A stretch of 64,000 nt of DNA. Source: Marinobacter mangrovi. Its GTDB lineage: Bacteria > Pseudomonadota > Gammaproteobacteria > Pseudomonadales > Oleiphilaceae. Location: NCBI RefSeq assembly GCF_016798325.1, contig NZ_JAERVO010000003.1, positions 455,608-519,607 of the forward strand, written 5' to 3'. The notes under the pieces were generated by a model. It saw only the letters and a program-made list of their open reading frames with translations, did no database searches and was not told the DNA's origin. Positions 4,901-44,588 of this stretch are shown here, piece after piece. Numbering within the stretch: position 1 is the first letter of the stretch; each line of letters begins with the position of its first letter. The position numbers were made by a program, and so were the translations under genes.

Positions 4901-6062
4901 AGGCGTAATAAGAGCTTTCGGGGGGCTAGGAAGTGCTGCATACGATTTAACTCTTACCGCAAGTATACTCGCAGAGCGATTTCAGAATGCGATACCCAAA
5001 CAGCTTGGCCGAACGAGTCGATTAGTTACTGCGATGTCTGCGAAGCTGGATAAGGAGGTTAGCGGTCGAATAGGCTTATTACTAGCGAGGTTGGCAGGCG
5101 GACCGGTTGTGATGAGAGCGGCGCTTGGTGCAGCAGGTGCTTTGGCTACCGGTTTTATATTTCTGTCCGACGCCTTCCATGCTTTTGATATGGGGAACAC
5201 AGGGGTTGGCATTGGTTACAGTTTGCTTGCAGCAGGCAGTTTTGCGATGGCCATCAGTAGTGTTGGGGCCACTCTTCTGTTTATCGGCCCCTTAGGGTGG
5301 ATGGCGATCGGCATTGCTCTATCCATTGCTGGAGCACTTGGCGTTTGGTGGTTCAGCGAAGACCCCATAGAGACCTGGATGAGTCAGGGGCCGTTTGGCG
5401 ATTCAACGGAGCTGTCTTTTCTTAAAGACCCTGACGAGTCGTACTACCGGTTGATTAGCCTGTTAATGGGCGTGCGAATCTCTTGGGAGTCCAACCAGAA
5501 ACGAGCCGAGGTGCTTAAGGGCACCATTGAGAGCGAAGGCAAGCTGCTGGAAGCGCAACTTGAAGCCGATTCCTGCCTACGGATTGAGAGTCCCATTCCC
5601 GGTTTGTTCGAGGATTCAGAGAAGAAAAGATTGGATGCTTACTTGCGTCTTGTAGAAAAAGTTGATGCGCACGTTGAATCCAGCCCTTCTGAAAAAACTG
5701 GGAGAGGTCGGTTTGAGTTGCCGCCAGGACAACGCCTTATTGAGGGCGAAGAATTGAAAAAGTACGCCTTGTTCAGGGAGAAGATAGATAACGGATGGTT
5801 GGTTTATTTAAAGACTCCCAAGCCTCATAGAGTTGAAAAGAAAAGCTGGTTCGGAGGCACGCGAACAAACTTGTATACCTATGCGTGGAGCGTAAGGGCT
5901 CAGATTCATGTTCAGGACGATGGGCGTGATGTGGTGTTCCCGGCACCGCCACCGGACGATCCGTTGACATATGATAAGGCTGATCCGGAGCATACAACGC
6001 CAGATTTTTCAGAAACAGATAAAGACTTTTGGTTCGATGAACAGGTTAATCAAGATGGATGA
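1998..6062 (+). CDS. Large T6SS cargo effector (1354 aa), VasX-like: MIX-like motif, central coiled coil, C-terminal glycine-zipper transmembrane cluster, conserved about 70-aa tail
   Basis: Follows vgrG + DUF4123; 'LRAGFLYIF' fits the hRxGhhYhh MIX core (nt 2406-2432); Lys/Glu/Gln-rich coiled coil about 3960-4750; hydrophobic Gly/Ala-rich helices about 5064-5355; last 70 aa recur as remnants at 17569-17797 and 43334-43540. Confidence 0.6.
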   Translation: MSENQTNQASASTGPACEGENLIIEVIGKNHPEGQSFRLFDTTNMVQQEWLENQVKTEELDDSILHVWPMKGEDDKNVWLEMAADEGDPIRVPFLKEEGAVERQSERQKHVILPVVPATLIQGVTLKESNPAHHVMLRAGFLYIFHEGKLWREIEVRISEKGVTTYHDVPVSQYRAEGGFEYGSRKATGTGLTEIWLPARINGAWLDIQVAYSEFQLPSARLRYFEKSGRNREDRFNFIHLELERPDTEEGETRLFGTGPDHAFLAENLKPQRPRKPAVEWQCDRPGRYLCDVNGEYPKASWNDAKTIHQRQESQELEDEIYEDERPEMGALSLCLERTLEELESSNDNAEEARQEDQSDNAGSSEPSLWESGGQCVPDALQDARDRGIGCISVDDGIYRLRYLTQRKLIADWFNSAAVRRAKCRPYFDSAFLVHSTIVPSDFDGKPNPLHKFISELSSTGRNEIDRSVANSERTMAQRYFEHLQRDLLVAVNNIGIQSALTDMFTCDGFDYAGAFQFVSGIMKDLVKDSREADALNLHKGDTSENDAKQWFRGFCRGENSASLFSILFPKATPETLESPYVVPDEPEENDGSGLFRGTELAKLENADLPKVEDVQTFHGLELVAAAHEGVFTSMLAFYVRAGSGILMNIHGELWSAIHDAEKKLTDDPEFKKKRQELVDLDKQLNEVNDERGNLRKQRAAARNTVARVDELYEELGEKKRNLQQARQVKARQLNEINSKAVTAKMRLYAASLQQIRASLPNFWGEMTFERLSKALQSDYYVIGWLDDLGDESNTNQGVRVFGDIFDESTEERTSVASTNRRRANAQGIDSEAPEEARLLVLPKSAKAAKALLELSSKESAVIAAEKQAEAAKKAFVEGGHAGTNARQRLQTATEQLDEANKKFKELTSRMGSLREDVDAPQKVIAETKGGVAYRSLNTPVLPAFVMLVEVYNFSANYSSYDALERKRGVIRAFGGLGSAAYDLTLTASILAERFQNAIPKQLGRTSRLVTAMSAKLDKEVSGRIGLLLARLAGGPVVMRAALGAAGALATGFIFLSDAFHAFDMGNTGVGIGYSLLAAGSFAMAISSVGATLLFIGPLGWMAIGIALSIAGALGVWWFSEDPIETWMSQGPFGDSTELSFLKDPDESYYRLISLLMGVRISWESNQKRAEVLKGTIESEGKLLEAQLEADSCLRIESPIPGLFEDSEKKRLDAYLRLVEKVDAHVESSPSEKTGRGRFELPPGQRLIEGEELKKYALFREKIDNGWLVYLKTPKPHRVEKKSWFGGTRTNLYTYAWSVRAQIHVQDDGRDVVFPAPPPDDPLTYDKADPEHTTPDFSETDKDFWFDEQVNQDG

Positions 6063-7110
6063 TGCGCCGGCAATGACAGGTGGGGATGGTCTTTATTATG
6101 GGAATGCAGCCTACCATCCGGAAAAGCTACCAAAGCAGCGACCGCAACTCTTGGATCCCAATCAGTCGGCTTTAAAGCGCATGGCGTCAGCCCGGTTGCC
6201 GTGGGGACATGCCGACAACGTCGTCCCTGACCGAGTCTTCTCAGTCGCTACCCCAAAGGCTCTGCGTGAAATTGAGCGACATGGCAGTCTGTTGGACAAT
6301 ATTGATGATCAAGGGGAAATGGATCATGAGTGCTTTCGCTTTGCGCCGTTAGCGAAAAGGGTTCAGATACTGGATTTGATGGAGGGTCTATCTAAGCTTG
6401 CTGTTAAAATTTTGGTTCCACTTACGATCGTTACGTTGCTATTAGCTTGGTCTGCAACTTCGAACGATGCTTACTGGCAAGATATCATCAATCACTGGTT
6501 TTTTTTCGCGTGTCTGCTTGGGATTCCTGGAGGAATCTGGTTGGTATCGGACTTGCTGATCAAGTACTGTCTCGGCTGGATTCTGAAATCCGGAAAAGGC
6601 CCGATATGGGAGTTCAATCGACGCACGGGCATGGTAACCGTCTGGAAATATCCATTTAAAATCCCGTTTATTCCTCGCGGCAAACCAGAGACCAAGCAGT
6701 TCCCGTTTATAGAGTTCGATGCCTGGGTCAGTGCCCGAGCCGACCGCTACGGCGCTTTGAATCGACTGCGGCTCTTTCATCGGTATAGCCCATGCGAGGT
6801 CGACATCGGAGCGGCTACCGGCGATCACAGCATGCCAGAGTCCTGTTATGCGATGTGGGATTTTATCCAGAACTATATGGACGTCACTCGGCCACTGCCC
6901 GATATCCCCGTGTTGGAACCCCATCGCCACAAGGACCCGGTGACTGTCGAATACGACCGTCGAACCAATCGCCCTGAACGTTATTGGCGTGATATGGACG
7001 ATGAGACATTCAAGGCGTGCGAAAACGAAATGAGCCTCAATGTGCGAATGATGAGCATGCAGAGCCGGGACAATATCATGGCCGGAAAGGTGGTTTACAC
7101 GAGCAGTTAG
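6037..7110 (+). CDS. Cognate immunity protein candidate (family A1), two TM helices + conserved C-terminal domain; start overlaps effector 3' end
   Basis: ATG 6037 inside the last codons of the effector (stop 6060-6062). N-terminal 'AAYHPEKLP' motif, two TM helices, then 'FIEFDAWVS' and 'YAMWDFIQNYMDVTRPLPDIPVLEPHRHKDPVT' shared by 7 paralogs in the window. The track start 5971 is an upstream extension. Confidence 0.55.
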   Translation: MNRLIKMDDAPAMTGGDGLYYGNAAYHPEKLPKQRPQLLDPNQSALKRMASARLPWGHADNVVPDRVFSVATPKALREIERHGSLLDNIDDQGEMDHECFRFAPLAKRVQILDLMEGLSKLAVKILVPLTIVTLLLAWSATSNDAYWQDIINHWFFFACLLGIPGGIWLVSDLLIKYCLGWILKSGKGPIWEFNRRTGMVTVWKYPFKIPFIPRGKPETKQFPFIEFDAWVSARADRYGALNRLRLFHRYSPCEVDIGAATGDHSMPESCYAMWDFIQNYMDVTRPLPDIPVLEPHRHKDPVTVEYDRRTNRPERYWRDMDDETFKACENEMSLNVRMMSMQSRDNIMAGKVVYTSS

Positions 7111-7145
7111 GTCATGAGCTTTTACTGCAAAGGGTAAAGGGCAGG

Positions 7146-7424
7146 TTAGCAGAACCCTGCTACGCCCTTTGGGACTTCGTACAAAACTACATGGATTTGA
7201 CCCAGCCCTTGCCCGATATCCCGATCTGGGAAGCCTACGGCCACCTGGACCCGGTCACAGCAGAGAACGACCGGCAAACCAATCGCCCGGAACGCTACTG
7301 GCGCGATATGGACGACGACACCTTCAAGGCCTGTGAGCGCGAGATGCACTATCGAGTCCACGCACTGCGCACCCTGAGCCGACCGAACATCATGGCCGAG
7401 AAGACGGTTTACGCGAGCTACTAG
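7146..7424 (+). pseudogene. 3' fragment (about 90 codons) of a displaced A1-type immunity gene
   Basis: From 'EPCYALWDFVQNYMD...' to '...KTVYASY*', near-identical to the C-termini of 17772..18848 and 43515..44588; no matching N-terminus; junction with upstream gene at 7111-7150. Confidence 0.6.
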
Positions 7425-7475
7425 CCGTTACACGGTTAATCGTTGAGTGGTTTCCCAGGGAAGGGAAACTGAAAT

Positions 7476-7511: not shown

Positions 7512-8435
7512 ATGCCCACCCCGCTGTACCAGCGCTGGCTGCCAATTCTGTTTGGCCTCGCCCTGCTATTCCCCGCTTCCGAACTCCACGCCGAAAAACC
7601 ACAACTCACCCTGGCCCAGGTCTACGAAAAGGGCGATGCCCTCAAAGGCTACTGGGTCAGCGAAAAACTCGACGGTGTGCGGGCCTACTGGGACGGTGAG
7701 CACCTGATTTCGCGTCAGGGCCATGCGTTTCATCCGCCGACCTGGTTTACCCGGGATTTTCCGGAGGTACCTCTGGATGGCGAGCTGTGGATGGGACGCG
7801 GGACCTTTTCCGAGCTGTCCGGGGTGGTGCGCAAGCTGGAGCCGGTGGACAGCGAGTGGCGGCAGGTGCATTACGAGATTTTTGATCTGCCCGGGAGTGA
7901 TCGCCCGTTTTCGGAGCGGGTGGCGCGCATGCGGTCGCTGCTCAAGCCTTCGCCATCACCCTACCTCGTTATGATCGAACAGACGCCGGCAACCACGCGG
8001 GCGGCGTTGATGGCGCGTCTGGACGAGGTGGTTGATGAGGGCGGTGAAGGGCTGATGCTACATCGTGGCGGTGCCCTGTATGAAGCCGGTCGCTCGGACG
8101 ATTTGCTGAAGGTGAAGCGGTATCAGGATGCCGAGGCCACGGTGGTGGGCTATTCGCCGGGGCAGGGGAAATACGAGGGCATGCTGGGCGCACTGGTGGT
8201 GGAGCGTTCCGATGGCCGCCGGTTCAAGCTGGGTAGCGGGTTCAGTGATGAGCAGCGTGCGGATCCTCCGGCGATCGGGGCGACGGTGACTTACAAATAT
8301 TATGGGCTGACGTCGACCGGATTACCGCGGTTCGCGAGTTTTATGCGGGTCCGGAATGAAGAGCCGGTCGGAAATGGGGGCAGACTCTGCGCGGCATTCT
8401 GTTCGACAAAGTCGCCACATGATGCTGCTCGATGA
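7512..8435 (+). CDS. Periplasmic ATP-dependent DNA ligase, LigE-like (copy 1, intact)
   Basis: N-terminal signal peptide 'LPILFGLALLFPASELHA'; motif I 'KLDGVRAYWDG' (KxDG adenylation lysine), 'EGLMLH', 'LLKVKR'; about 300 aa, typical of signal-peptide-bearing minimal ligases. Confidence 0.75.
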   Translation: MPTPLYQRWLPILFGLALLFPASELHAEKPQLTLAQVYEKGDALKGYWVSEKLDGVRAYWDGEHLISRQGHAFHPPTWFTRDFPEVPLDGELWMGRGTFSELSGVVRKLEPVDSEWRQVHYEIFDLPGSDRPFSERVARMRSLLKPSPSPYLVMIEQTPATTRAALMARLDEVVDEGGEGLMLHRGGALYEAGRSDDLLKVKRYQDAEATVVGYSPGQGKYEGMLGALVVERSDGRRFKLGSGFSDEQRADPPAIGATVTYKYYGLTSTGLPRFASFMRVRNEEPVGNGGRLCAAFCSTKSPHDAAR

Positions 8436-8486
8436 GAGCAATACATCGCAATTCATGTGTCTGGTCCTGAGTGGTAAAGGAGTTTT

Positions 8487-9485
8487 ATGATGGAGGCATA
8501 CCAGCCAACGGCTTATCGGTTCGATGATATTCCGATTTTACCCAGCGGCGGGCATCCAAAGTTGGATAAGGTATTTGAGCGGCTCTCTTGGGGGCATTAT
8601 CAAACGCCAGTCGTACCTAATGCGGTGGAAGTGCAACTTGCCTATGCAAGTCTTTTCAGTAACGAAAATGACGCTGAGGATGGATTTCCTTGGAATGAAG
8701 AAAGTTTTTCTATAGGTAAAGGGTTTTTAAATGGTTTTCAGTCTTTGTTGTATATGATTCATATATGCGCTGTTCTTTTGTTTTATCTCGCTTTATTTCC
8801 CCTTTTTTTTAGCATTATTTTTTATTTTGTTGATGAATTGAGGTTGTCCGCGCTGTATACTATTGCTCAAAGTTTCACTATTATGTAGGTGGTTATAGCG
8901 GCGCTATACGTCCTAGGGAAGTATGGAAGGCTATTGTTGGCTCAAGTTTCCGAAAAAGCGCAAAGAGCAAATCCAACAGGTCTCTATCGTCGCGAAGGGT
9001 TGGTCCGCATAAAAAACCGGAAAGAGGTTTTTACCGCACCCTTTATCGAGTTCGATGCCTATTGTGTCCATTCCCCTTCCGGCCGTGGTAGTCGCTATTA
9101 CAATCTTGTCCTCCAGCATCGCTACAGCGAGGAACAGCTTTGGATGAAAGGACTGCTAACCAATGCGATGAATCCGCAAGATGTCTACGCCTACTGGGAC
9201 ATGGTCCAGCAGTTCATGGACGTGAGTCACCCTCTGCCGGACGTGCCGGTTTTTGAGCCCTTCCGTCATCGCGATCCAGTAACCGCCGAAGAGGACGCCC
9301 GTACCGGGCGTGATCCATTCCATTGGCGCAAAATCACGCCGGAATCCTGGCGGGAGCATTACGAATCAAAATATCGAGCGCGACTACTCAACGCAAATTG
9401 GAATCGCCCCTGCATTATGGATGCTCGTATTGAAGGCAGGGGGATACCCGCCAATGAACCGCCCCGCGGTAGTATCCTGGCCTGA
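8487..9485 (+). pseudogene. A2-type immunity paralog interrupted by an in-frame TAG (8886-8888)
   Basis: ORFs 8487..8888 and 8889..9485 are in the same frame, split by a single amber codon; together colinear with the intact paralog 42284..43309 ('DIPILPSGGHPKLDKVFERL', 'YAYWDMVQQFMDVSHPLPDVPVFEPFRHRDPVTAEEDARTGRDPFHWRKITPESWREHYESKYRAR'). Confidence 0.55.
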
Positions 9486-9588
9486 TCAATGATGGACGAT
9501 CTGGATGTTGAACAGCGGCAGTTGCGGCCTGTTTCTCTACGACTTTGGGGGGAGCATTCAATTTCAAAGATGATGGAGGATCAGGGGG

Positions 9589-10608
9589 TTGACTGATCCT
9601 GAGAAGAGTGAACATAGCGGGGCTTCATACTCGGAAACGGCCTATCGCTCCGATGCCTTGCCGCGCCAGGCCCCGCTGAGTGATCCGGGTGGTTTTGCTC
9701 GCACCCTGGAAGGGCTGAATTTTGTCGAGCGGCTGCCTACTGGCAGTTACGCTGGTTTAGACGGGGACGTTAGCCCAGACGTTGTGAAGCATTTTCAGGA
9801 TCGGGCACAAGGTGAAATGAACTTGGCTGGCCCTCCCTGGGATCATAAAGGGAAGCCGGCCAATCTCATTAAGACGCGCTGGGAAATTATACTAATGTTT
9901 GCCGGTACTCTTGGAGATAGGTTCGTTTTCGGTTTTTTTTCGTTCGCTTGTTTAGGCAGTTTTCTTATAGGCATATGCGTTGCTGATTTTTTTATTACAT
10001 TGAAACTTATTTCAATATTGTTTTTTGGTTTGGTAATTCTTCATATTACTTTTCGTTATCCCTTCATGTGGCTCTTGGAGCGCTATCCAGAGATCATGGT
10101 TCGCGATCTCGGTTGCGGTTTTTTCCGTACGACGGGAAAAATCAAATTCCGCACCTACTGGGGTAAGGAAACCTTCGAGGCCCCCTTCATCGAGTTCGAT
10201 CCTTATATCGCCTATCACGTCCAACCGAATGGCCCGGTGAGCTATAAGCTGGTTCTTCGACACCGTTATCGGGGGCGTCAGACGGAGGTGGCTACCGTTC
10301 CGCAGGGACGAAAGACCGAGCTCTATGCCGTCTGGGACCAGTTGCAGCGCTACATGGACGTGAGCCAGCCCCTGCCGGATATCCCGGCCCTGGAAGCCTA
10401 CCGGTCCCTCGACCCCACAACCGCGGCCTATGATGCCGCCGGTAAGCGGGGTCGACCTGCGGATTATTGGGTCACACTGGACCTGGACTGGTGGAAACGG
10501 GAAGGGTATCCCGAGCACATGACAAAGATCGCTGAATTCCCGTGGGACAGTCTCGAAGACAAGATGGAACAGAGTGTGCCAAACCTGCGCGAAGCGGCCA
10601 TGGTTTAA
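9589..10608 (+). CDS. Immunity-family paralog A3 (divergent member; TTG start likely)
   Basis: 'YSETAYRSDALP' N-motif, TM segment, 'FIEFDPYIAYH', 'YAVWDQLQRYMDVSQPLPDIPALEAYRSLDPTT'; preceded by the about 170-nt junction also found at 42170-42340. Confidence 0.5.
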   Translation: MTDPEKSEHSGASYSETAYRSDALPRQAPLSDPGGFARTLEGLNFVERLPTGSYAGLDGDVSPDVVKHFQDRAQGEMNLAGPPWDHKGKPANLIKTRWEIILMFAGTLGDRFVFGFFSFACLGSFLIGICVADFFITLKLISILFFGLVILHITFRYPFMWLLERYPEIMVRDLGCGFFRTTGKIKFRTYWGKETFEAPFIEFDPYIAYHVQPNGPVSYKLVLRHRYRGRQTEVATVPQGRKTELYAVWDQLQRYMDVSQPLPDIPALEAYRSLDPTTAAYDAAGKRGRPADYWVTLDLDWWKREGYPEHMTKIAEFPWDSLEDKMEQSVPNLREAAMV

Positions 10609-10678
10609 ACACTGACATCACCGCAAATAGCGTTACTCAATGACGTCCCATGGACGGGACGCTAAGTCGCAAGCAAAC

Positions 10679-10704
10679 CCTTAATTCACCACAAGGACCG
10701 TGAA
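10679..10704 (+). repeat. Ligase leader repeat (copy 2)
   Basis: 'gcaagcaaacccttaattcaccacaaggaccgtgaaatgcc' core. Confidence 0.75.
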
Positions 10705-10953
10705 ATGCCAACCCCGCTGTACCAGCGCTGGCTGCCAATTCTGTTTGGCCTCGCCCTGCTGTTCCCCGCGTCTGAACTCCACGCCGAAAAAACGCAACTC
10801 ACCCTGGCCCAGGTCTACGAAAAGGGCGATGCCCTCAAAGGCTACTGGGTTAGCGAAAAGCTGGACGGTGTGCGGGCCTATTGGGACGGCGAACACCTGA
10901 TTTCCCGCCAGGGCCATGCGTTTCATCCGCCGACCTGGTTTACCCGGGATTTT
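10705..10953 (+). pseudogene. LigE-like ligase copy 2, truncated after codon 83 by the IS21-family remnant
   Basis: Identical N-terminus through 'PPTWFTRDF'; nucleotide identity to copy 1 ends at 10953, where the track ORF (to 11067) runs on into unrelated IS-derived sequence. Confidence 0.7.
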
Positions 10954-11067: not shown

Positions 11068-11604
11068 GGCTTCGCCGCCCGGGCCTGCCGGCCCAGGACC
11101 AAGGGCAAGACCGAGCGCATGGTGAGCTACGTGAAGCACCACTTCTTCCAGCGCTATCGCAGCTTCGACAGCTACGCGCACCTGAACCAGTTACTGGAAC
11201 AGTGGTTGAGCAGCTATGCCCGTCAGCGGAGATTACGCCAGTTCCAGCAATCTGCGGCTCAGCGCTTCGAGGAAGAGCTCCACCAACTCAGCCCTCGTCC
11301 GGCAACGGACGTCGATACCCGCTATTACGACATCCGCCATGTGGGCTGGGATGCCTACATCGATGTGCGGGGCAAACGTTACAGCGTACCGGCCGAGTGT
11401 TGTGGTCAACGGGTCAACATCCTCATGAGCCTGGACGGTGAACTCACCGTCTACGACCTCCGGGGCCAGGAAGTCGCCCGTCACCGGATGACCGATCGCA
11501 GGCAAGGCTGGCAAACCGTCGCTGAACACCACGAGCCGCTGTGGCAAGAGGTGATGCCCGTGCAGCGCCGAAGCCTGGCGGTGTATGAGGAGGTGCTGCA
11601 ATGA
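11068..11604 (+). pseudogene. istA: IS21 transposase IstA, C-terminal fragment only
   Basis: In-frame region begins right after a stop at 11065-11067 with 'ASPPGPAGPGPRTKGKTERMVSY'; catalytic N-terminal region missing. Confidence 0.65.
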
Positions 11605-12402
11605 ACCTGGACCAACTCCTAGGCCGGCTCAAAATGGACCATCCGCAAGCCTCCCTGGATACCCTGTGCGAACACGCCAGCAAGAAGGACCTGAACTACC
11701 GGGAGTTCCTGGAACAGGCCCTGGCCCAGGAATGGGGTGGCCGCCACCAGAAAGGCCTGGACACGCGCCTCAAGCAGGCCCGGCTGCCCTGGATCAAAAC
11801 CCTGGAGCAGTTTGACTTCAGCTTCCAGCCGAGCATTGACCGCAAGCTGGTGCGGGAACTCTCCGGCCTGGGGTTCGTGGAGCGCAACGAGAGTGTGATC
11901 CTGCTGGGGCCACCGGGTGTGGGCAAAACCCACCTGGCCGTCGCCCTAGGCGTAAAGGCTGCTGAAGCGGGCCATCGCGTCCTGTTCATGACCCTGGATC
12001 GCCTGGTGAGCACACTGGTCAAAGCCCGGCAGGAAAACCGGCTGGACCGACAGCTTCAACAACTGATCTACCCAAAGGTGCTGGTGCTTGACGAGATCGG
12101 TTACCTGCCCATGACCCGGGAGGAGGTCAGCCTGTTCTTCCGTCTGATCAACCGGCGCTATGAGCGAGCCAGCACCATCCTGACCTCGAACAAGAGCTTT
12201 ATGGACTGGGGTGAGGTGTTGGGACCAGGTCATTGCCACCGCCATTCTGGATCGGCTGTTGCACCACTCAACGACTCTGAACATCAAGGGCGAGAGCTAC
12301 CGGCTAAAGGACAAACGGAAGGCCGGCCTTGTTCCCGGTACGAGCCAACAACAGGAGGTCTCTGACGACGCTGAGCCTCAAAAACCGGACACTGAAAACT
12401 GA
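11601..12402 (+). pseudogene. istB: IS21 helper ATPase IstB with a frameshift near codon 205
   Basis: ATG overlaps the istA stop (ATGA). The conserved C-terminus 'VIATAILDRLLHHSTTLNIKGESYRLK' continues in a different frame (ORF 12211..12402) after about nt 12215-12235. Confidence 0.65.
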
Positions 12403-12456: not shown

Positions 12457-13011
12457 CACTACTGGGATGAACAGTCCAGGCCATCGAACACGGAGCTGCT
12501 GGAGGACAGCAGAACCATCGCATCCCCGGACGATGGCGGGAAAGTTCGTAAATATTTTGAAGCGGAGCTGGATGCATTCTATTACATGCTGTTTTCGCCC
12601 ATAGTGCGAATAACCGAACACATGCCCAGGTATTGGGATACGACCCGGCAGGGGGAGCTTAAGGTCCTGTCGGAGTTCACGAGCTTTGCAGTGTACTTTC
12701 CGGGATACAGTGAAGGGACATGTGTCGTTTCTATAAAACTGTTCGAGGCGAATACCCACTGGTTCTCAGATGACGATTCAAATGAAATTAGCCACTTGTT
12801 CGATGACCGAAAGAGACAAGAGTCCGCTTCCCATGGTCTGCTTTACCGGTTTACTCACTACAATCACAACAAGTGGGAACAACTGGAAATGCTGATTGAA
12901 TACGAGAAGGATGGCCGGAAGGTTACCGGTGAAAACGGGCTCAGAATTATTCTGGACGGTAACGACGTGGAGGAACTGGGTGTCGATGAAAGACTCGCCT
13001 TTGAGGTGTGA
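12457..13011 (+). pseudogene. 3' fragment of a second (family-B-associated) effector-like gene, 5' part removed by the IS21 remnant
   Basis: Frame open without a start from 12457 (just after the IS end); first ATG 12586; its last about 35 codons ('...IEYEKDGRKVTGENGLRIILDGNDVEELGVDERLAFEV') recur upstream of each downstream tandem paralog. Confidence 0.4.
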
Positions 13012-13861
13012 TTTTCCGGAAACGGACCTGGAGCAACAGCTGGAAAAGAAGCGGTACCGTACTCATGGTGCACGGCTCGCCAGCCCCCCAGCCAGAAAGG
13101 TGGCGGGAGTGTCCGATTCTTCGGAAGATATGGACCAAGGCGTTGCTTTCATTAGTGAAGGGTTCATGGACATTAGGACTGCCTTCTTGTCTCTTCGAAG
13201 GGCCATACCAGCCATCATAAATCTGTTCATGATCATTGTCCTGCTGTTGGGCTGGGTCGTTAGCTTGTTCTTTTCAAAGGCTTTACTCGGAGTATTGATT
13301 GCTTTTGGTCCTGTCTGGGTGGCCGTCTACCTGTTCGAGATCTTCTTTCCGTACACGCTGCCGGTCCGGATCGACCTTAAGGAGGGGGTCGTCTACATAG
13401 GGCACCGCGGCACCTTCTACAGGATTCCCTGGGACGAGCTGGAAGTGACCTTTTCCTACAACTGGCAGTATCTGGGCTCTGGCGTAGTGTGGGAGCGGCA
13501 GTACTACGCCCACATATTCATGCGGGAAAAGCATTACTTTTGTGGGAAGCGCCCTAAGATGCCTCTGCAGCGCAAGAAGGTTTTTTCCGGGTTTAAGGAG
13601 GAGGATATGTATCGGAAATGGAACTTTATTGTCAGGTATTACAACGACGGGGTTGTTGAAAAAGACATCGATCATCTCGCCGGGATGAATTTTGACTCGC
13701 TTCGTAAGGATCTAGCTTCCAGTTCAATAGGAAAACGCATAGTCGAGTATTCTCTTCTCATTCTGCTTATTCCGACCATAATATGGTCGAAGTATACACC
13801 CTTAAAATACAAGTGGCCGAAAGAGATTGAAGAGATTTTTGGGAAGATTAACTATTACTGA
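12986..13861 (+). CDS. Family-B candidate immunity membrane protein (tandem copy 1 of 4)
   Basis: ATG 12986 overlaps the 3' end of 12457..13011; 'MKDSPLRCDFPETDLEQQLEKK', two TM helices, 'GHRGTFYRIPWDELEVTFSYNWQYLGSGVVWERQYY'. Confidence 0.5.
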   Translation: MKDSPLRCDFPETDLEQQLEKKRYRTHGARLASPPARKVAGVSDSSEDMDQGVAFISEGFMDIRTAFLSLRRAIPAIINLFMIIVLLLGWVVSLFFSKALLGVLIAFGPVWVAVYLFEIFFPYTLPVRIDLKEGVVYIGHRGTFYRIPWDELEVTFSYNWQYLGSGVVWERQYYAHIFMREKHYFCGKRPKMPLQRKKVFSGFKEEDMYRKWNFIVRYYNDGVVEKDIDHLAGMNFDSLRKDLASSSIGKRIVEYSLLILLIPTIIWSKYTPLKYKWPKEIEEIFGKINYY

Positions 13862-14001: not shown

Positions 14002-14877
14002 ATGAAAGACTCGCCTTTGAAGTGTGATTTTCCGGAAACAGATCTGGAACAACAGTTGGAAAAGAAGCTGTACCGCACTCATGATGCGCGACTCGCCAGC
14101 CCGCCAGCCAGGAAAGTGGCAGGGGTGTCGGCTTCCTCGGAAGGAATGGAGTATGGTGTCGCCTACATCAACCAACGGTTCATGGACATCCGCACGGCTT
14201 TCTTGATCTTTAGGCGATTCCAATTGGCTATTGTAAATCTGTTCATGATGATTGTCTTGACATTGGGCGGGGGGCTTAGCCTGTTTTTTTCAAAGGCACC
14301 GTTGGCAGTCTTGGTTACTTTTGGGCCTGTCTGGGCGGCCATCTACCTGTTCGAAATTTTCTTCCCGCTCACGCTGCCCGTGCGGATCGACCGCCAGGAA
14401 GGGGTTGTGTACGTAGGGCACCGGGGGACTTTTTACCGGATTCCCTGGGACGAACTGGAAGTGACCTTTTCCTACAACTGGCAGTATCTCGGCTCCGGGG
14501 TTGTATGGGAGCGGCAGTACTATGCCCATCTGTTTATGCGGGAGAAGCATTACTTTTGCGGGAAGTCCCCCAAGATGCCCTTGCAGCGTAAAAAAATCTC
14601 TTCCGGGTTTAAGGAAAAGGATATGTATCGGAAATGGAATTTTATTGTCAGGTATTATAACGAAGGAATGGTTGAGGAGGACGCTGACAATCTTGTTATG
14701 GCTAATTACGATACATACCGTAAATACATAACCCAAAAATCATTGGGGAGGCGTATTTTTAGTTACTTGTTGTTTCTTGTATTTATGCCAACCATGATTT
14801 GGTGGAAATTTACCCCTTTCAAGTACAAGTGGCCGAAAGAGGTTGAGGAGGTTTTTGGGAAGGCTAACAATTACTGA
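14002..14877 (+). CDS. Family-B candidate immunity membrane protein (tandem copy 2)
   Basis: Paralog of copy 1; preceded by the remnant 'KDGRKVTGEDGLRIILVGNDVEELGVDERLAFEV*' (13925-14029). Confidence 0.5.
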   Translation: MKDSPLKCDFPETDLEQQLEKKLYRTHDARLASPPARKVAGVSASSEGMEYGVAYINQRFMDIRTAFLIFRRFQLAIVNLFMMIVLTLGGGLSLFFSKAPLAVLVTFGPVWAAIYLFEIFFPLTLPVRIDRQEGVVYVGHRGTFYRIPWDELEVTFSYNWQYLGSGVVWERQYYAHLFMREKHYFCGKSPKMPLQRKKISSGFKEKDMYRKWNFIVRYYNEGMVEEDADNLVMANYDTYRKYITQKSLGRRIFSYLLFLVFMPTMIWWKFTPFKYKWPKEVEEVFGKANNY

Positions 14878-16907: not shown

Positions 16908-17037
16908 GTTTGTTAGCAACAGAATGAGAAATATTTTGCGCGATAGACCGGCTATCTGCTCCTGATTTCGGTGCTTGAGTATCTAACCGTTGTAATCAAA
17001 TCTTCCGACATCCTCCCAAGGACGGGAATCCGACACA

Positions 17038-17072
17038 CAAGCAAACCCTTAATTCACCACAAGGACCGTGAA
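17038..17072 (+). repeat. Ligase leader repeat (copy 3)
   Basis: Same core sequence ending at ATG 17073. Confidence 0.75.
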
Positions 17073-17568: not shown

Positions 17569-17797
17569 TGAAAAGAAAAGCCGGTTCGGAGGCACGCGAA
17601 CAAACTTGTATACCTATGCGTGGAGCGTAAGGGCTCAGATTCATGTTCAGGACGAGGGGCGTGATGTGGTGTTCCCGGCACCGCCACCAGACGATCCGTT
17701 GACATATGATAAGGCGGATCCAGAGCATACAACGCCGGATTTTTCGGAAACGGGTAAAGATTTCTGGTTCGATGAAAAGGTGGTTCAACGTGGGTAG
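17569..17797 (+). pseudogene. Remnant of the last about 75 codons of an effector gene homologous to 1998..6062
   Basis: 'EKKSRFGGTRTNLYTYAWSVRAQIHVQDEGRDVVFPAPPPDDPLTYDKADPEHTTPDFSETGKDFWFDEKVVQRG*' against the effector C-terminus; no upstream effector body. Confidence 0.7.
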
Positions 17798-18848
17798 TGT
17801 TTTCGAGAAGCAGAACCAAGCCGCTGTTCATTACGCGGAAACAGCATACCGGCCAGAGTGCATACCAGAGCAACCTTCACAGCGGGAGGATTATAACCAA
17901 TCAGCTTTGGGGCGCGTCGGCACTGCACGTTTGCCATGGGGATACACCGAAACAGTTATCCCTTTGACCATTTTTTCTCAAGCTTCACCGGGTTTACTTC
18001 GTCGACATGAAAAACATGGAGATCCGTTAGAAGGGACTGGTTACCAGGGAAAAATGGATCATGAATGCTTTCGATATGCGCCTTTGGCCAAGCGATTTCA
18101 GATATTAAATTTAACTGAAATCATTTCCAGATTTATTATTATTATTTTTGGTCCTCTAATGATTTTGGGTTTTATTATAGGATCATTTCTTACATCCAAA
18201 AGTGATTACTGGCATAGTCTAATATACGATGACTGGCGCTCAAATGCTTTAATGTTTGGAGTTCCAATTGGAGTTTGGGTTAGTTCTTGGGTTTTAGGTA
18301 AGCTGTGTTTAGGCTGGTTTTTGAAGGCAGGAAAAGGCCCTCTATGGGAGCTGAAACGCCGCACCGGCATGGTCACCGTGTGGTCCTACCCTCCAAAATT
18401 TCCATTTATTCCCCGTGGCAAGCCTGAGGTTTTTAAAGCCCCCTTTGTGGAATTTGACGCCTGGGTCAGTACCCGTGGTGACCGGGCCGGGATTCTGAAC
18501 CGTCTCCATTTGTTCCATCGTTACAGCAAGTGTGAAGCAGGTGTGGGGGCTGTCGGTGGAGCGACCAGTATGCCTGAGCCCTGCTACGCCCTTTGGGACT
18601 TCGTCCAGAACTACATGGACGTGACCCAGCCCTTGCCCGATATCCCGATCTGGGAAGCCTGCCGCCACCTGGACCCGGTCACGGCCGAGCACGACCGGCA
18701 AACCAACCGCCCGGAACGCTATTGGCGCGATATGGACGACGACACGTTCAAGGCCTGCGAGCGCGAGATGCACTATCGAGTCCACGCACTGCGCACCCTG
18801 AGCCGGCCGAACATCATGGCTGAGAAGACGGTTTACGCGAGCTACTAG
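17772..18848 (+). CDS. A1-type candidate immunity protein (orphan copy), start overlapping the effector-tail remnant
   Basis: Same overlap geometry as 6037..7110; 'YAETAYRPECIP', two TM helices, 'FVEFDAWVSTRGDRAGILNRLHLFHRYS', 'YALWDFVQNYMDVTQPLPDIPIWEACRHLDPVTAEHDRQTNRPERYWRDMDDDTFKACE'. Confidence 0.55.
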   Translation: MKRWFNVGSVFEKQNQAAVHYAETAYRPECIPEQPSQREDYNQSALGRVGTARLPWGYTETVIPLTIFSQASPGLLRRHEKHGDPLEGTGYQGKMDHECFRYAPLAKRFQILNLTEIISRFIIIIFGPLMILGFIIGSFLTSKSDYWHSLIYDDWRSNALMFGVPIGVWVSSWVLGKLCLGWFLKAGKGPLWELKRRTGMVTVWSYPPKFPFIPRGKPEVFKAPFVEFDAWVSTRGDRAGILNRLHLFHRYSKCEAGVGAVGGATSMPEPCYALWDFVQNYMDVTQPLPDIPIWEACRHLDPVTAEHDRQTNRPERYWRDMDDDTFKACEREMHYRVHALRTLSRPNIMAEKTVYASY

Positions 18849-38640: not shown

Positions 38641-39354
38641 ATGTACTTGGAGTACGTGCCGGCTGAGCAACAGTATGATTATTATGCGAAAGAGTGTTAT
38701 GCAAACTCAATGTCTGGGTCGAGTTTTCATGTTTTCCAGAAAAGCGTGCGGCTGGTTGATGATAAAGTCATTGCGGCCTCTTTCATTAAAGGCATAACGG
38801 TACTTCGACTTAAAGATATAAAATTCATCGAGTTGAGAGTCGACCATTCTGACGCTTCGGTCTGCTGTAATATATGGGGGCATTCCGGAACAGGTTATAT
38901 CACGCTTTGTGATTACAGCCTCGTTAATGGGTTAAATGCCGTCGCGGAGGTCAAAAGAAAGGAGTTCGTATCGTTCATCGAGACTTTGCTTGGACGTTTG
39001 AAGGAATTGGATCTGGCACAGCAAGTGGAATGCAAATATGTTGGACCAGAAACGATAAAAATTGAACTGATCGAGATGTTTTGGTCTTTTCTCTTTGCGC
39101 CAATCGTTATGACTATTCTTATGACGCTCATGATAGTGGTAGGCGTTCCAAGTTCTTCGACCGTAATGACGACAATATGCGTTGTACTCGTTTTCCCGCT
39201 CATGTTTTTGGGATGGTATATCAGCCCCCGCGTTGTGGATTCTCTGTGTGAAACGTGTGTGATTACTTATCCGGTGCTTCCGGAACGGCTATTCGAACTG
39301 GCCGACGGCGTCATCACCAGAGATTTATCGAAAGAAGACGAGGATAAAAAGTGA
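38641..39354 (+). CDS. Hypothetical membrane protein (low-GC gene)
   Basis: 237 aa, two C-terminal TM helices, AT-rich codon usage unlike neighbours. Confidence 0.4.
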   Translation: MYLEYVPAEQQYDYYAKECYANSMSGSSFHVFQKSVRLVDDKVIAASFIKGITVLRLKDIKFIELRVDHSDASVCCNIWGHSGTGYITLCDYSLVNGLNAVAEVKRKEFVSFIETLLGRLKELDLAQQVECKYVGPETIKIELIEMFWSFLFAPIVMTILMTLMIVVGVPSSSTVMTTICVVLVFPLMFLGWYISPRVVDSLCETCVITYPVLPERLFELADGVITRDLSKEDEDKK

Positions 39355-40586: not shown

Positions 40587-41291
40587 GTGTGTTGTATCAT
40601 TTGTCCCGCAGTCATCCTGCAGGAGGCAGGGTGTGGAAACCATGGAAAGGATTCGATGTTATTACCCCCCGAAATTTGCTTCGCGGCTATGTCCCTCGAA
40701 GTGCTCGAAGACCTGTCTTACGATGTAGTGCGTAAAAATCCAACGGCAACGGTGACGCCGATAAACGCTCGAGGGCGTCCAGCCGACTGGTCGTCTGGAA
40801 AGGTTTTTGCGTTTAAGGTCCAGGAGGATGGCCAGAACAAACCCTTCATGATCGTTACGACCAAGTCCGCGATGCTCATGCCGGAAAGAGCCTCTCCCGA
40901 CGTGTTTGACGTATCGGTCCGTATAGTGCGTGCCCGTGTCAACTACACGGAGCCTCAGCCCGAAATCGCCGTGGGCTTGTTGGCGACGGCCGGTTTTGCA
41001 GCTTTGTTTTACTACACGCTAATTCATCAAATCGTCCCACGTGGGCCTTTGATTACCTGCATCGTGCTGGTGGCGGTGTGCTTGCTCTTGGCTGGGCTGA
41101 TTCTGCTTGTGATGCGGTTGTATAAGGCTCCAGAGCGCGGCCGCAGTAAGTTGGGTGTAGTCTTGCTGCTCCCGGGCCTGTTTGCGGTTATGCCAATAGG
41201 CCTCCTTAACCTCCCGTTGCTCCATTACATCCGTCGCAAGCACGGTGAGCAATTGTTGCCCACTCGGGTTGTTTCGACGGAGATCAACTGA
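40587..41291 (+). CDS. Hypothetical membrane protein
   Basis: 234 aa, TM helices in C-terminal half; start uncertain. Confidence 0.35.
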   Translation: MCCIICPAVILQEAGCGNHGKDSMLLPPEICFAAMSLEVLEDLSYDVVRKNPTATVTPINARGRPADWSSGKVFAFKVQEDGQNKPFMIVTTKSAMLMPERASPDVFDVSVRIVRARVNYTEPQPEIAVGLLATAGFAALFYYTLIHQIVPRGPLITCIVLVAVCLLLAGLILLVMRLYKAPERGRSKLGVVLLLPGLFAVMPIGLLNLPLLHYIRRKHGEQLLPTRVVSTEIN

Positions 41292-41529: not shown

Positions 41530-41868
41530 GTGAGTGACGAAACTAAAGCCATGTGTATGTCGTGCCAAGGTCCTAATCAGCTTTCCCAGGAAGATCTGGC
41601 GCAACTCGGTAAGTCCGAACCGATCGCCTGCGGTGAATGCGGCGCAATGGTAAAAATCAAGCCTGACCCGGATGGAGAGCGGAAGGCGATGTTGTCGGTT
41701 TTGACCTTGACCGCCGGAGCTTTGATCGTTTGCGTCGTGGCCTTGATCAATCTATTTGGTGATGCCGGTTTCCCGACTTACTTTGTGGCCATTCCATTCA
41801 TTTTGATTTCAACGCTTTTGGTGTCGATCCAGAGCGCTAATGTGATCAAACTGCAGCCCGTCGACTGA
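41530..41868 (+). CDS. Zinc-ribbon (CxxC...CxxC) membrane protein
   Basis: 'CMSCQG' and 'CGECG' pairs followed by two TM helices. Confidence 0.4.
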   Translation: MSDETKAMCMSCQGPNQLSQEDLAQLGKSEPIACGECGAMVKIKPDPDGERKAMLSVLTLTAGALIVCVVALINLFGDAGFPTYFVAIPFILISTLLVSIQSANVIKLQPVD

Positions 41869-42034
41869 GGTCACCGGCCTAAGAGGAGGGTGGCCCGCAT
41901 GTTTGGGACCTCAAGGAGAAACCATCAGTCTTTCAAACCTGCACCTTAATTCCCTTGATATCCGCTCAATTCTGGCCCTTTAAAACTTAACTTGACCTAG
42001 GATTTTTCATGTTCAAGTTTTTGCTTCTTTCAAG

Positions 42035-42217
42035 TTGTACTCGAAGGTTTATAAAGGCTGGCTTCTCCAAGGTGACAATAATACTGACTATGCTGTTTCC
42101 GCGGATGGCCAGTGGCTGGCAGGTCATAACGTAAAGGCTTGGGACCGTTCCCGCGAAGCGTATGTGGATCAAAAGGTTTCACACACGATGGACGATCTGG
42201 ATGTTGAGCAGCGGTAG
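42035..42217 (+). pseudogene. Remnant of the 3' end of an A2-cognate effector gene (tail '...SHTMDDLDVEQR*')
   Basis: The same tail 'MMDDLDVEQRQ' and the following about 170 nt recur at 9486-9660 upstream of the other A2/A3 paralogs. Confidence 0.45.
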
Positions 42218-42283
42218 TCGCGGCCTGTTTCTCTAGGACTTTGGGGGAACATTCAATTTCAAAGATGGTGGAGGAGCAGGGGG

Positions 42284-43309
42284 TTGACTGATCTTGAGAA
42301 GAGTGAACATAGCGGGGCTCCATACTCGGAAACGGCCTATCGCTCCGATGATATTCCCGTTCTGCCCACCGGTGGGCACCCCAAGTTGGATAAGGTATTT
42401 GAACGGCTCCCTTGGGGGAATTATCAAACACCGGTCGTTCCCAATACAGTAGAGACTCAACTTGCCTATGCCAGTCTTTTCAAAGATGAAAAGGACACTG
42501 AAGATGGGTTTCCGTGGGGTGAAGAAAAGATAGCCATTGGGAAAGGTTTTCTGAACGGGTTTCAGGCATTTTTGTACATTACGTATATGTGTGCTTGGTT
42601 GGCTTCGTTAGTTGCTTTGATACCGCTAACAATTAGCTTTTTCTCACTATTTTTACATGGATTCAGCGTCGCCAGCCTTTATAATATTCTATCCGCTTAT
42701 GGGGTTATGTATGCAATCATAGGGGGGCTTTTTTTCGGAGGAAAATACGGTCGCTTGATGTTGGCTTATCTTACCGAAAAACGCCAAAGAGCAAACCCAA
42801 CCGGCCTCTATCGCCGCGAAGGGTTGGTCCGCATAAAAACCCGAAAAGAGGTTTTTTCCGCACCCTTTATTGAGTTCGATGCGTATTGTGTCCATTCCCC
42901 TTCCGGTCGTGGTGGCCGTTATTACAACCTTGTCCTCCAGCATCGCTACAGCGACGAACAGCTCTGGATGAAGGGGATGGTGGCCGATGTGATGAATCGG
43001 CAAGACGTCTACGCGTACTGGGACATGGTCCAGCAGTTCATGGACGTGAGTCACCCTCTGCCGGACGTACCGGTCTTTGAGCCCTTCCGTCATCGCGATC
43101 CAGTGACCGCCGAAGAGGACGCCCGTACCGGGCGTGATCCATTCCATTGGCGCAAAATCACGCCGGAATCTTGGCGGGAGCATTACGAATCAAAATATCG
43201 AGCGCGGCTACACAATGCGAACTGGAATCGCCCCTGCATTATGGACGCTCGTATTGAAGGGCGCGGGATACCGATCAAGGATGAACCTCAGGGCCGCATG
43301 TTGGCTTAG
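42284..43309 (+). CDS. A2-type candidate immunity protein (intact copy)
   Basis: 341 aa; colinear with the pseudogene 8487..9485; 'FIEFDAYCVHSPSGRGGRYYNLVLQHRYS', 'YAYWDMVQQFMDVSHPLPDVPVFEPFRHRDPVT'. Confidence 0.55.
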   Translation: MTDLEKSEHSGAPYSETAYRSDDIPVLPTGGHPKLDKVFERLPWGNYQTPVVPNTVETQLAYASLFKDEKDTEDGFPWGEEKIAIGKGFLNGFQAFLYITYMCAWLASLVALIPLTISFFSLFLHGFSVASLYNILSAYGVMYAIIGGLFFGGKYGRLMLAYLTEKRQRANPTGLYRREGLVRIKTRKEVFSAPFIEFDAYCVHSPSGRGGRYYNLVLQHRYSDEQLWMKGMVADVMNRQDVYAYWDMVQQFMDVSHPLPDVPVFEPFRHRDPVTAEEDARTGRDPFHWRKITPESWREHYESKYRARLHNANWNRPCIMDARIEGRGIPIKDEPQGRMLA

Positions 43310-43333
43310 GAGCAAAAGGGCCTGTTCGGAAAC

Positions 43334-43540
43334 GTGGTCAGTCGGGAGATCGTGAAGTACTCGTGGAGCGCCCGTGTCCAGATCCGCATTGGCAAGAAGG
43401 ACGACCTGATGGTTTTCCCTGCGCCCTTGCCGGACTCTTCATTAACGTACGATAAAAACAATGAAGAACACACCAAGCCGGATTTCTCCGAAACGGACAG
43501 GGTTTTCTGGTTCGATGAAAAGGTGGTTCAACGTGGATAG
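43334..43540 (+). pseudogene. Remnant of the last about 68 codons of an effector gene (divergent homolog of the 1998..6062 tail)
   Basis: 'VKYSWSARVQIRIGKKDDLMVFPAPLPDSSLTYDKNNEEHTKPDFSETDRVFWFDEKVVQRG*'. Confidence 0.6.
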
Positions 43541-44588
43541 TGTTGTAGAAATGCCGAGGCAGACAACTGGTTATTATGCCGATACCGCCTATCGACCGGA
43601 TCGCATACCGGAGCAACCTCCCCAGCATGAGGACCACAACCAATCCGCGCTGGGGCGTTTTGGCACCGCGCGCTTGCCGTGGGGGCATACGGAACCGGTT
43701 GTACCGATTATTGTTTTCGCGAAGGCCCCCCCAAAACTACTGCGTTGGCATGAAGAGCAGGGGGATCCCCTCGAGGGCACTGGCTATCAGGGGCGGATGG
43801 ATCATGAGTGCTTTCGGTATGCACCGCTGGCTAGGCGTTTTCAGGTTTTAAATTTGTCCGAGATTTTTTCCAGATTAACGGTCCTTATTTTTGGCCCTTT
43901 GATGATATTGACGCTGATTATTGGATCGTTTATTTCGTCAGACAAGAATTACTGGCATAGCTTAATTGACGAGTGGCAATCCTTTGCCATGATGTTTGGA
44001 ATTCCAATCGGAATCTGGGTTGTTTCCCGGGTTTTGGGGAAGTTATTTTTAGGTTGGTTCTTGAAAGCAGGAAAAGGCCCTCTATGGGAGCTGAACCGCC
44101 GCACCGGCATGGTCACCGTATGGACCTACCCTCCAAAATTCCCCTTCATTCCGCGCGGCAAGCCAGAGGTCTTCAAGGTGCCATTTGTGGAGTTTGACGC
44201 CTGGGTCAGTACCCGTGGTGACCGGGCCGGGATCCTGAACCGTCTCCATCTGTTCCATCGTTACAGCAAGTGCGATGCGGGCGTTGGTGCCATCGGTGGT
44301 AACACCAGCATGCCCGAACCCTGCTATGCCCTTTGGGACTTCGTACAAAACTACATGGACGTGACCCAGCCCTTGCCCGATATCCCGATCTGGGAAGCCC
44401 ACCGCCACCTGGACCCGGTCACGGCCGAGCACGACCGGCAAACCAACCGCCCGGAACGCTACTGGCGCGATATGGACGACGACACCTTCAAGGCCTGTGA
44501 GCGCGAGATGCACTATCGAGTCCACGCACTGCGCATCCTGAGCCGGCCGAACATTATGGCCGAGAAGACGGTTTACGCGAGCTACTAG
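43515..44588 (+). CDS. A1-type candidate immunity protein (orphan copy)
   Basis: Overlaps the remnant as in the other A1 cassettes; the 3' half is nearly identical in nucleotide sequence to 18330-18848 and 7146-7424. Confidence 0.55.
   Translation: MKRWFNVDSVVEMPRQTTGYYADTAYRPDRIPEQPPQHEDHNQSALGRFGTARLPWGHTEPVVPIIVFAKAPPKLLRWHEEQGDPLEGTGYQGRMDHECFRYAPLARRFQVLNLSEIFSRLTVLIFGPLMILTLIIGSFISSDKNYWHSLIDEWQSFAMMFGIPIGIWVVSRVLGKLFLGWFLKAGKGPLWELNRRTGMVTVWTYPPKFPFIPRGKPEVFKVPFVEFDAWVSTRGDRAGILNRLHLFHRYSKCDAGVGAIGGNTSMPEPCYALWDFVQNYMDVTQPLPDIPIWEAHRHLDPVTAEHDRQTNRPERYWRDMDDDTFKACEREMHYRVHALRILSRPNIMAEKTVYASY

Follow-up and report, generated by a model that had tools for sequence, protein, structure and literature searches.

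The question raised by a 64,000-nucleotide stretch of Marinobacter mangrovi DNA (contig NZ_JAERVO010000003.1, positions 455,608 to 519,607; hereafter, the window) is what function is served by its repeated genes for proteins with two transmembrane (TM) helices, which accompany genes of a type VI secretion system (T6SS), and whether these proteins belong to any known family. The paralogues are referred to here as the A family, with the subtypes A1, A2 and A3, and individual copies are designated by subtype and first position (Table 1). We propose, with a probability of about 0.8, that they are inner-membrane immunity proteins against pore-forming T6SS effectors of the VasX/BTH_I2691 type, a widespread class of T6SS pore-formers. 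To our knowledge, the proteins TsiV2, Tki5, Pti2 and Tsi3a have each been studied singly and never grouped into families. The A family is unannotated and belongs to a known kind of system, with a probable distant relative, DUF6708, that is already suspected of the same role.

A paralogous family of two-helix membrane proteins

Every copy named in the initial annotation was present in the lists of open reading frames and their translations, giving five intact copies, one copy interrupted by an amber codon and two fragments. When all six frames of the window were scanned with the family profile, the known copies and no further ones were recovered, the 38-residue A3 tail being too short to score in such a scan. 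In pairwise BLASTP comparisons, run at an effective database size of 1e8, the copies matched each other with E-values from 1e-11 to 0, and their amino acid identities are 56–83% among the A1 proteins, 74% between the two A2 copies and 26–33% across subtypes. The similarity is far above chance and the copies are members of one paralogous family.

The sequence features first described for these proteins were found with some adjustments. The motif PF[IV]EFD[AP][WY] occurs in all six long copies, and a pair of hydrophobic helices was seen or modelled for all copies. The N-terminal string ETAYRxxxIP is present in its strict form only in two copies, the others having degenerate variants (NAAYH, DTAYR, PTAYR); similarly, the proposed C-terminal block appears in its strict form in two copies and in a slightly relaxed form in all seven copies that reach this region. 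The gene A1_6037 starts at 6055 in the NCBI annotation, and from Met7 onwards its product is 100% identical to the M. mangrovi NCBI protein P0005; on the same strand, the 5' end of A1_6037 and the 3' end of the effector gene have 26 nucleotides in common. The A2 pseudogene at 8487-9485 contains a single in-frame TAG (8886-8888), and the same codon is TAT in A2_42284.

Distribution and linkage to VasX-type effectors

A database search returned 521 relatives of the A family from Marinobacter, Stutzerimonas, Halopseudomonas, Pseudomonas and bacteria of the Halomonas group; those that carry a name are all called hypothetical protein, and Pfam domains are absent throughout. A second search, with a member from Pseudomonas indica as the query, gave 539 relatives that are widespread in fluorescent and plant-associated pseudomonads, with no match from P. 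aeruginosa or P. putida among the best 120 of them. Tki5, Pti2 and TsiV2 are absent from the best 120 of the 521 relatives and from the best 120 of the 539. In a profile search of 1.84 billion representatives, 546 clusters (counted at 50% identity) were found at E <= 0.001 and 185 at E <= 1e-30. Further members are encoded in Vibrio quintilis, Photobacterium, Shewanella and Marinomonas, and a 418-residue member from Motilimonas pumila (P0269) is annotated as ankyrin repeat-containing. With a profile of this family, hundreds of hypothetical proteins could be annotated automatically, and orphan immunity gene arrays would be easy to spot.

In a scan of one genome per species, 547 encoded relatives were identified; 76 of the loci were then read, with the VgrG, adaptor, effector and family proteins of the window serving as queries. 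At least two family matches were found in 46 of the 76 loci. Linkage was counted in those 58 loci whose first family gene is preceded by 4.5 kb or more of sequence. In 56 of these 58 loci, a homologue of the window effector, a VgrG or both are encoded upstream on the same strand, and in 46 of them the effector C-terminus is found between -60 and +200 bp from a family gene. Taken separately, VgrG is upstream in 44 loci and DUF4123 is detectable in 33. The two exceptions are orphan-only loci, one of them syntenic with the third region of the window and the other located beside an IS110 transposase gene. Among the adjacent effectors from syntenic loci, 17 out of 20 match the VasX_N domain (best E 9e-29), and the membership of the window effector in the VasX_N/BTH_I2691 family is supported by these matches of its homologues. 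The family is thus generally linked to T6SS effectors elsewhere, and the initial proposal of a candidate T6SS immunity family is supported by the upstream vgrG and effector genes, the abutting effector ends and the VasX_N matches.

For example, a Salinivibrio replicon carries, according to its RefSeq annotation, the genes hcp-2, vgrG, DUF4123 and 'toxin VasX' followed by a gene for a 318-residue hypothetical protein, which scores 344 bits against the family profile; fragments of further copies, disrupted by insertion sequences (IS), come next. A2-type genes follow distinct effectors of ~1250 residues at four loci (L005, L006, L021 and L028), and A3-type genes follow a distinct effector of 1132 residues at locus L023. 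The N-terminal ~600 residues of the A2- and A3-linked effectors are 22–25% identical to the window effector, and no detectable match to the window was obtained for their C-terminal parts. The A-linked effectors are mostly 1240–1560 residues long. The suggestion of the initial annotation that one immunity fold serves a family of related effectors is consistent with the present data. In Pseudoalteromonas piscicida, eight places on a 1.3-Mb replicon match the A family (locus L078, NZ_CP074588, 852873-878056; the record is essentially unannotated).

Effector remnants and history of the arrays

The A genes of the window lie among effector remnants and duplicated flanks (Table 1). Both orphan A1 genes are preceded by the last 76–77 codons of an effector gene with an A1-type tail; the stub at 43310-43540 is 53% identical to the tail of the window effector and 97% identical to the effector tail of Marinobacter halodurans (locus L001). 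A self-comparison of the window revealed a 165-bp block shared at 94% identity between 9491-9655 and 42187-42350, which comprises a Shine-Dalgarno motif, the TTG start, the first 22 codons and a 10–28-residue stub of a third, A3-type effector tail. In A2_42284, the junction of the chimeric 5' end is at the conserved TAYR motif. The A2 pseudogene is located after a ligase gene, and no effector remnant was detected at this place. The three subtypes had been thought to follow three different effector tails; this holds for the orphan A1 copies and their A1-type tails, whereas A2_42284 and A3_9589 both follow a short remnant of the same A3-type tail and none was detected before the A2 pseudogene.

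The downstream flank is duplicated as well, since the segment 7152-8373 with the end of an A1 gene and the ligase gene is 96% identical to 44316-45539. The ligase, an ATP-dependent DNA ligase of the Lig E type with a signal-peptide-like N-terminus, has full copies at 7512-8435 and 44676-45542, and pieces from the 5' end of its gene are at 10646-10953 and 17014-17415. It represents a conserved 3' flank of immunity arrays and is also found downstream of arrays at loci L006, L007, L013 and L014. The first array region is interrupted, just after a ligase fragment, by an IS21 remnant (11119-12365, forward strand) that consists of a C-terminal fragment of IstA with the Mu-transposase C-terminal domain and an intact-looking IstB. 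Tandem cassettes of ~150 C-terminal effector residues plus an A1 gene were observed in Marinobacter halodurans (L001-L004), where the stubs are longer than those of the window.

For V. cholerae, the formation of orphan immunity gene arrays has been explained by sequential displacement (PMC5361080; the model of Kirchberger et al. 2017). The signature of this process, namely diverged paralogues, 3' effector stubs and a duplicated conserved downstream flank, is present in the window, and the effector stubs, the duplicated A1/ligase flank and the multi-copy loci match a model of sequential displacement with retention of old immunity genes. Under this scenario, A1_6037 would be the immunity partner in the intact module of vgrG, DUF4123 and effector genes, and the other A copies would be orphans that stayed behind as recombination replaced older effector-immunity modules with incoming ones. 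The orphans that are kept may protect the cell from related toxins fired by its neighbours. The window would provide a clean example of an orphan immunity array outside Vibrio.

The last ~77 residues of the effector were considered as an immunity-specific partner and rejected. The stub that precedes A1_17772 matches the tail of the intact effector at 91% identity, while A1_17772 itself shares only 56% identity with A1_6037. The effector tail is not the specificity partner because near-identical tails precede very different A1 copies. In addition, the target of Tki5 in Tke5 is the α-helical region (PMC12909789).

Table 1. Coordinates of A-family genes, effector-module genes, effector remnants and DUF6708-like genes in the window
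Feature	Position	Strand	Evidence or remark
VgrG spike protein, C-terminal part	9..1409	+	Pfam Phage_GPD, Phage_base_V, Gp5_trimer_C; gene runs off window start
DUF4123 (Tap-type) adaptor	1422..1985	+	Pfam DUF4123 48.3 bits, above cut-off; weak match to NCBIfam Tla1
VasX/BTH_I2691-type effector, 1354 residues	1998..6062	+	Hydrophobic region at residues ~1025-1120
A1 copy, candidate cognate immunity gene	6037..7110	+	Directly 3' of intact effector; profile score 377.7 bits
C-terminal fragment of older A1 copy, beside ligase gene	7146..7424	+	93% identical to end of A1_17772
A2 pseudogene	8487..9485	+	74% identical to A2_42284; its two halves match family profile separately
A3-type effector tail remnant, ten residues (MMDDLDVEQR)	9489..9518	+	Compared with L023 effector tail; within the 165-bp block shared with 42187-42350
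A3 copy	9589..10608	+	TTG start after GGAGGA motif; family profile 252.8 bits
Four tandem DUF6708-like genes	12986-13861, 14002-14877, 15019-15891, 16032-16907	+	58-75% identical mutually
A3 C-terminal tail fragment, 38 residues	17416..17530	+	DNA 98% identical to 10511-10625
Effector C-terminus remnant, 77 residues	17564..17797	+	91% identical to residues 1278-1354 of intact effector
Orphan A1 copy	17772..18848	+	Open reading frame, translation and pairwise identity; AlphaFold2 model pLDDT 91.5
A3-type effector tail remnant, 28 residues	42131..42214	+	VKAWDRSREAYVDQKVSHTMDDLDVEQR resembles L023 effector tail
Orphan A2 copy, chimeric 5' end	42284..43309	+	First 22 codons common to A3_9589
Effector C-terminus remnant, 76 residues, directly after A2 stop codon	43310..43540	+	tblastn with effector proteins
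Orphan A1 copy, ligase gene next	43515..44588	+	100% identical to M. mangrovi NCBI protein P0001; profile 383.7 bits

Predicted fold, topology and conservation

The AlphaFold2 model of A1_17772 was obtained with a pLDDT (predicted local distance difference test score) of 91.5 and a pTM (predicted template modelling score) of 0.86, and places helices at residues 107-140 and 146-178, strands at 192-249 and a helix at 269-282. As modelled, an A protein begins with an N-terminal region of ~105 residues, continues with a long TM hairpin whose short loop is acidic and a β-sheet of five strands, and ends with a helical domain bearing the conserved block YMDVSxPLPDxP...DPxT...RYWRDM. A hydropathy scan detected two hydrophobic helices in 30 out of 39 sequences, and the predicted location is the inner membrane. 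In these 30 sequences, the mean number of lysine plus arginine residues is 2.1 in the N-terminal flank of the hairpin, 0.57 in the loop and 2.33 in the C-terminal flank, and the loop itself is acidic and 10–28 residues long. Because of this charge bias and the positive-inside rule, we infer that both termini and the soluble parts are cytoplasmic, and that only the loop would be periplasmic. Conservation is distributed unevenly along the protein: variability is highest in the hairpin and loop (3.2–3.5 bits; 24–26% identity among window copies) and lowest in the C-terminal block (1.76 bits; 61% identity).

Relationship to DUF6708 and alternative explanations

Searches of the Pfam, NCBIfam and PADLOC libraries gave no match for the A copies of the window, and searches of the PDB by sequence with the family profiles, the effector and the effector profile returned only compositional TM matches or nothing. 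The A family did not match any characterised non-immunity family in these libraries. It had been described as a new family without an assigned DUF; the window copies are indeed beyond the reach of the Pfam and NCBIfam models, but the novelty has to be qualified, since a remote homology to DUF6708 (PF20455) is probable. Of the intact copies in the window, all five fail to match PF20455 even at E 0.1, let alone at its gathering threshold of 27 bits. Among the relatives, DUF6708 is the only family that is matched repeatedly, first by 2 of 39 and then by 7 of 105 of them, all below threshold; the best relative, P0238, scores 24.7 bits against the cut-off of 27 (E 2.3e-5, model positions 26-131).

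Profile-profile comparison points in the same direction. An hhalign run with 105 A-family sequences against 21 DUF6708-like sequences from Marinobacter gave a probability of 65.8% (E 5.7e-5). The probability grows with the depth of the alignments (0.7%, 2.4%, 7.5% and 65.8%) in the same register each time, and the deepest alignment pairs A1 residues 168-283 with DUF6708-like residues 110-220, a stretch that spans the second TM helix, the β-sheet and the next helix. The AlphaFold2 model of a DUF6708-like protein (pLDDT 72, pTM 0.72) has helices at 66-92 and 99-120, strands at 127-202 and a helix at 205-221. The order of elements, which was compared without superposition of the structures, is the same as in the A1 model, namely a TM hairpin, β-strands and a helix.

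The two families also use the same genomic slot. VasX_N effectors that have no A gene next to them have a DUF6708 protein in this place, with scores of 28.3 bits (locus L010) and 30.4 bits and three loci with weaker matches; in the loci read, effectors of 955–972 residues are followed by DUF6708 and not by the A family. The window itself contains four tandem DUF6708-like genes, two of which match Pfam DUF6708 (25.2 and 22.7 bits) and the other two do not at E <= 0.001. Some of their database homologues carry a precomputed PF20455 assignment, and the homologue at locus L010 is encoded directly 3' of the VasX_N effector. One of the four genes matches the A profile with an E-value of 2.3e-4. The segment 12986-16907 is a candidate second orphan immunity array, of the sister family DUF6708.

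The A family can be linked to DUF6708 because of the recurrent sub-threshold matches, the profile-profile comparison and the same order of elements in the models, and it is kept apart because it has its own N-terminal region and C-terminal block and lacks an extra C-terminal helix. The strongest alternative is that the A proteins are simply divergent DUF6708 proteins of the Tsi3a type, that the Pfam model is too narrow and that only the annotation gap is new; we give this slightly less than an even chance. The recurrence of DUF6708 as the sole matched family, the rise of the hhalign probability over one collinear stretch, the cross-match of a DUF6708-like window gene, the identical secondary-structure order and the shared slot all speak for it. 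However, no intact window copy matches PF20455, a probability of 65.8% is too low for secure homology and the similarity spans only ~100 residues, with no DUF6708 counterpart to the conserved C-terminal block or to the ~105-residue N-terminal region and with an additional C-terminal hydrophobic helix in the DUF6708-like proteins. We conclude that the A family is probably a distant sister of DUF6708 rather than a member.

Two other explanations concern the function itself. The A proteins might be membrane accessory factors of the producer, for example, holding the hydrophobic helices of the effector at the cytoplasmic face before VgrG loading. Large conserved domains predicted to be cytoplasmic, a highly conserved C-terminal block and genes that always lie within the effector operon would fit such a role, which we nevertheless regard as very unlikely: orphan copies have been retained where no effector remains (in the window and at loci L013 and L035), diverged paralogues in tandem arrays are typical of immunity genes and not of chaperones (PMC5361080), a dedicated DUF4123 adaptor is already encoded, and the gene at the same position in characterised effector relatives is an immunity gene (PMC13133200, PMC3857813). 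Still less credible is the explanation that the A genes are cargo of a mobile or duplicated segment and that their association with the T6SS is incidental. The IS21 remnants at 11119-12365, the segmental duplications that take in the ligase gene and the IS elements adjoining copies at loci L035 and L077 are in line with mobility, but the link to VgrG or VasX_N is seen in 56 of the 58 loci across the five genera Marinobacter, Pseudomonas, Stutzerimonas, Halopseudomonas and Salinivibrio, which excludes coincidence, and the cargo explanation was rejected on this synteny.

Probable immunity function and possible mechanism

Inner-membrane immunity to VasX/BTH_I2691-type effectors, which is well supported by the comparative context, remains our preferred function for the A family, and several points have to be set against it. 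Protection and binding are read from the comparative context of the genes. The window effector itself matches its family models below their cut-offs, with 21.6 bits against VasX_N (PF20249, Pfam cut-off 27) and 54.9 bits against the NCBIfam model BTH_I2691_fam (NF041559, E 5.8e-15, cut-off 150). The topology was derived solely from the positive-inside rule. VasX-type toxins act from the periplasm and the soluble domains of the A proteins are predicted to be cytoplasmic, which fits poorly with a simple periplasmic capture. A strongly conserved charged C-terminal block would be unusual for a surface that tracks polymorphic toxins. Finally, a covariation scan of 100-residue effector windows against immunity divergence gave rho values of 0.67–0.91 throughout with a shallow maximum at residues 400-600; with shared phylogeny uncontrolled, the scan singles out no contact region and was not used as evidence.

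In the mechanism that we propose, the variable hairpin and loop would recognise the hydrophobic α-helical region of the toxin at or in the inner membrane, and this recognition would stop the toxin from forming a conducting channel, while the conserved cytoplasmic domain may act as a common scaffold or cap. VasX, Tke5 and Ptx2 are toxins that depolarise the inner membrane, acting chiefly from its periplasmic face (PMC3857813, PMC13133200, bioRxiv 10.1101/2025.04.30.651342). A further step, which we consider doubtful, is that the conserved β-sheet and C-terminal domains are cytoplasmic, by extension in DUF6708-type proteins too, and that immunity is exerted in the membrane from its inner face. 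For instance, the hairpin might trap inserted toxin helices, or the cytoplasmic cap might block the channel. If true, such immunity would contrast with the periplasmic toxin capture drawn for Ptx2-Pti2. The predicted topology with both termini inside, a variable hairpin and a conserved cytoplasmic domain raises a concrete question about the mechanism of membrane immunity. Overall, the A family would fill the immunity slot for the larger effectors of the VasX/BTH_I2691 class, with a tentative tie to DUF6708.

Comparison with known immunity systems

Like tsiV2, tki5, pti2 and tsi3a, the A genes of intact modules belong to an operon with vgrG, DUF4123 and effector genes, in which they come right after the effector gene in the same orientation. 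One of the closest systems is that of Stenotrophomonas rhizophila CFBP13503, where the DUF6708 protein Tsi3a (WP_141059345.1) is encoded 3' of a BTH_I2691 effector and followed by 12 paralogues, and where DUF6708 has already been proposed as the immunity to a pore-forming effector of the BTH_I2691 family (PMC13340143, PMC10777753). Similar to Tsi3a, the A proteins are encoded directly 3' of a MIX/BTH_I2691 pore-forming effector in a vgrG-tap-effector operon, have a mass of ~39 kDa, form long paralogue arrays and combine a TM hairpin with a following β-sheet and helix. Weak collinear sequence similarity and an interchangeable genomic slot are common to the A family and DUF6708; scores below the Pfam threshold, the ~105-residue N-terminal region and the conserved C-terminal block set the A family apart from DUF6708, as does the absence of the C-terminal hydrophobic helix of DUF6708-like proteins.

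The remaining systems, Tki5, Pti2, TsiV2 and TpiX, were compared with the A family by their published descriptions only, and the papers on Tki5, Pti2 and TsiV2 give no family assignment. Tki5 (PP2611) of Pseudomonas putida is a ~35 kDa membrane protein encoded right after the DUF4123-dependent BTH_I2691 effector Tke5; it co-purifies with Tke5 from membranes and neutralises the α-helical pore-forming region of the toxin, not its C-terminal β-rich region (PMC13133200, PMC12909789). The near-identical effector tails that precede very different A1 copies agree with an α-helical target of this kind. The A-linked effectors, in their typical size range, differ from Tke5, which has 996 residues. Since the 955–972-residue effectors that precede DUF6708 are near Tke5 in size, Tki5 may by analogy belong to DUF6708.

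In P. aeruginosa PA14, the membrane-bound protein Pti2 (PA14_69510) confers immunity to Ptx2 and is encoded after vgrG6-tap6-ptx2, with a curved antiparallel β-sheet as its predicted contact to the toxin (bioRxiv 10.1101/2025.04.30.651342). The A1 model likewise has a β-sheet beside the membrane hairpin, although it is predicted to be cytoplasmic, whereas in the published model the contact between Pti2 and Ptx2 is periplasmic. TsiV2 (VCA0021) of Vibrio cholerae provides immunity to VasX and is encoded in the operon hcp-2, vgrG-2, vasW (DUF4123), vasX, tsiV2 (PMC3857813). The A family has the same operon layout and forms orphan arrays as in the V. cholerae aux-2 cluster (PMC5361080), and in Salinivibrio the position of tsiV2 is held by an A-family member. 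Finally, TpiX (PA5264) of P. aeruginosa PAO1 is an inner-membrane protein encoded after the VasX-like effector TpeX (bioRxiv 10.64898/2026.08.24.746647). The A family resembles it in gene position after a VasX-like effector and in its predicted inner-membrane location. It differs in having two TM helices at residues ~107-178 with soluble regions on either side, instead of the four predicted N-terminal TM helices of TpiX, and TpeX has no DUF4123 adaptor, unlike the window effector module, which encodes one.

Other genes of the window

Several further genes are located between and around the A-family regions. On the reverse strand, 24573-28415 encodes a 1280-residue protein that consists largely of ankyrin repeats and matches the PADLOC candidate defence model PDC-M72A with 226 bits. 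The forward-strand segment 30264-38292 encodes a 646-residue protein without a Pfam match, a weakly Yip1-like membrane protein and then a 1745-residue protein with DUF3686, DUF7902 and AAA domains; no PADLOC match was found for the proteins of this segment. A related AAA protein is encoded upstream of the orphan A genes at locus L013, indicating conservation of the neighbourhood within Marinobacter. Several small proteins, predicted to be membrane proteins and lacking family matches, flank the orphan arrays at 38641-39354, 40587-41291 and 41530-41868 on the forward strand and at 18941-19747 and 19891-20382 on the reverse strand, and could represent further immunity-like genes.

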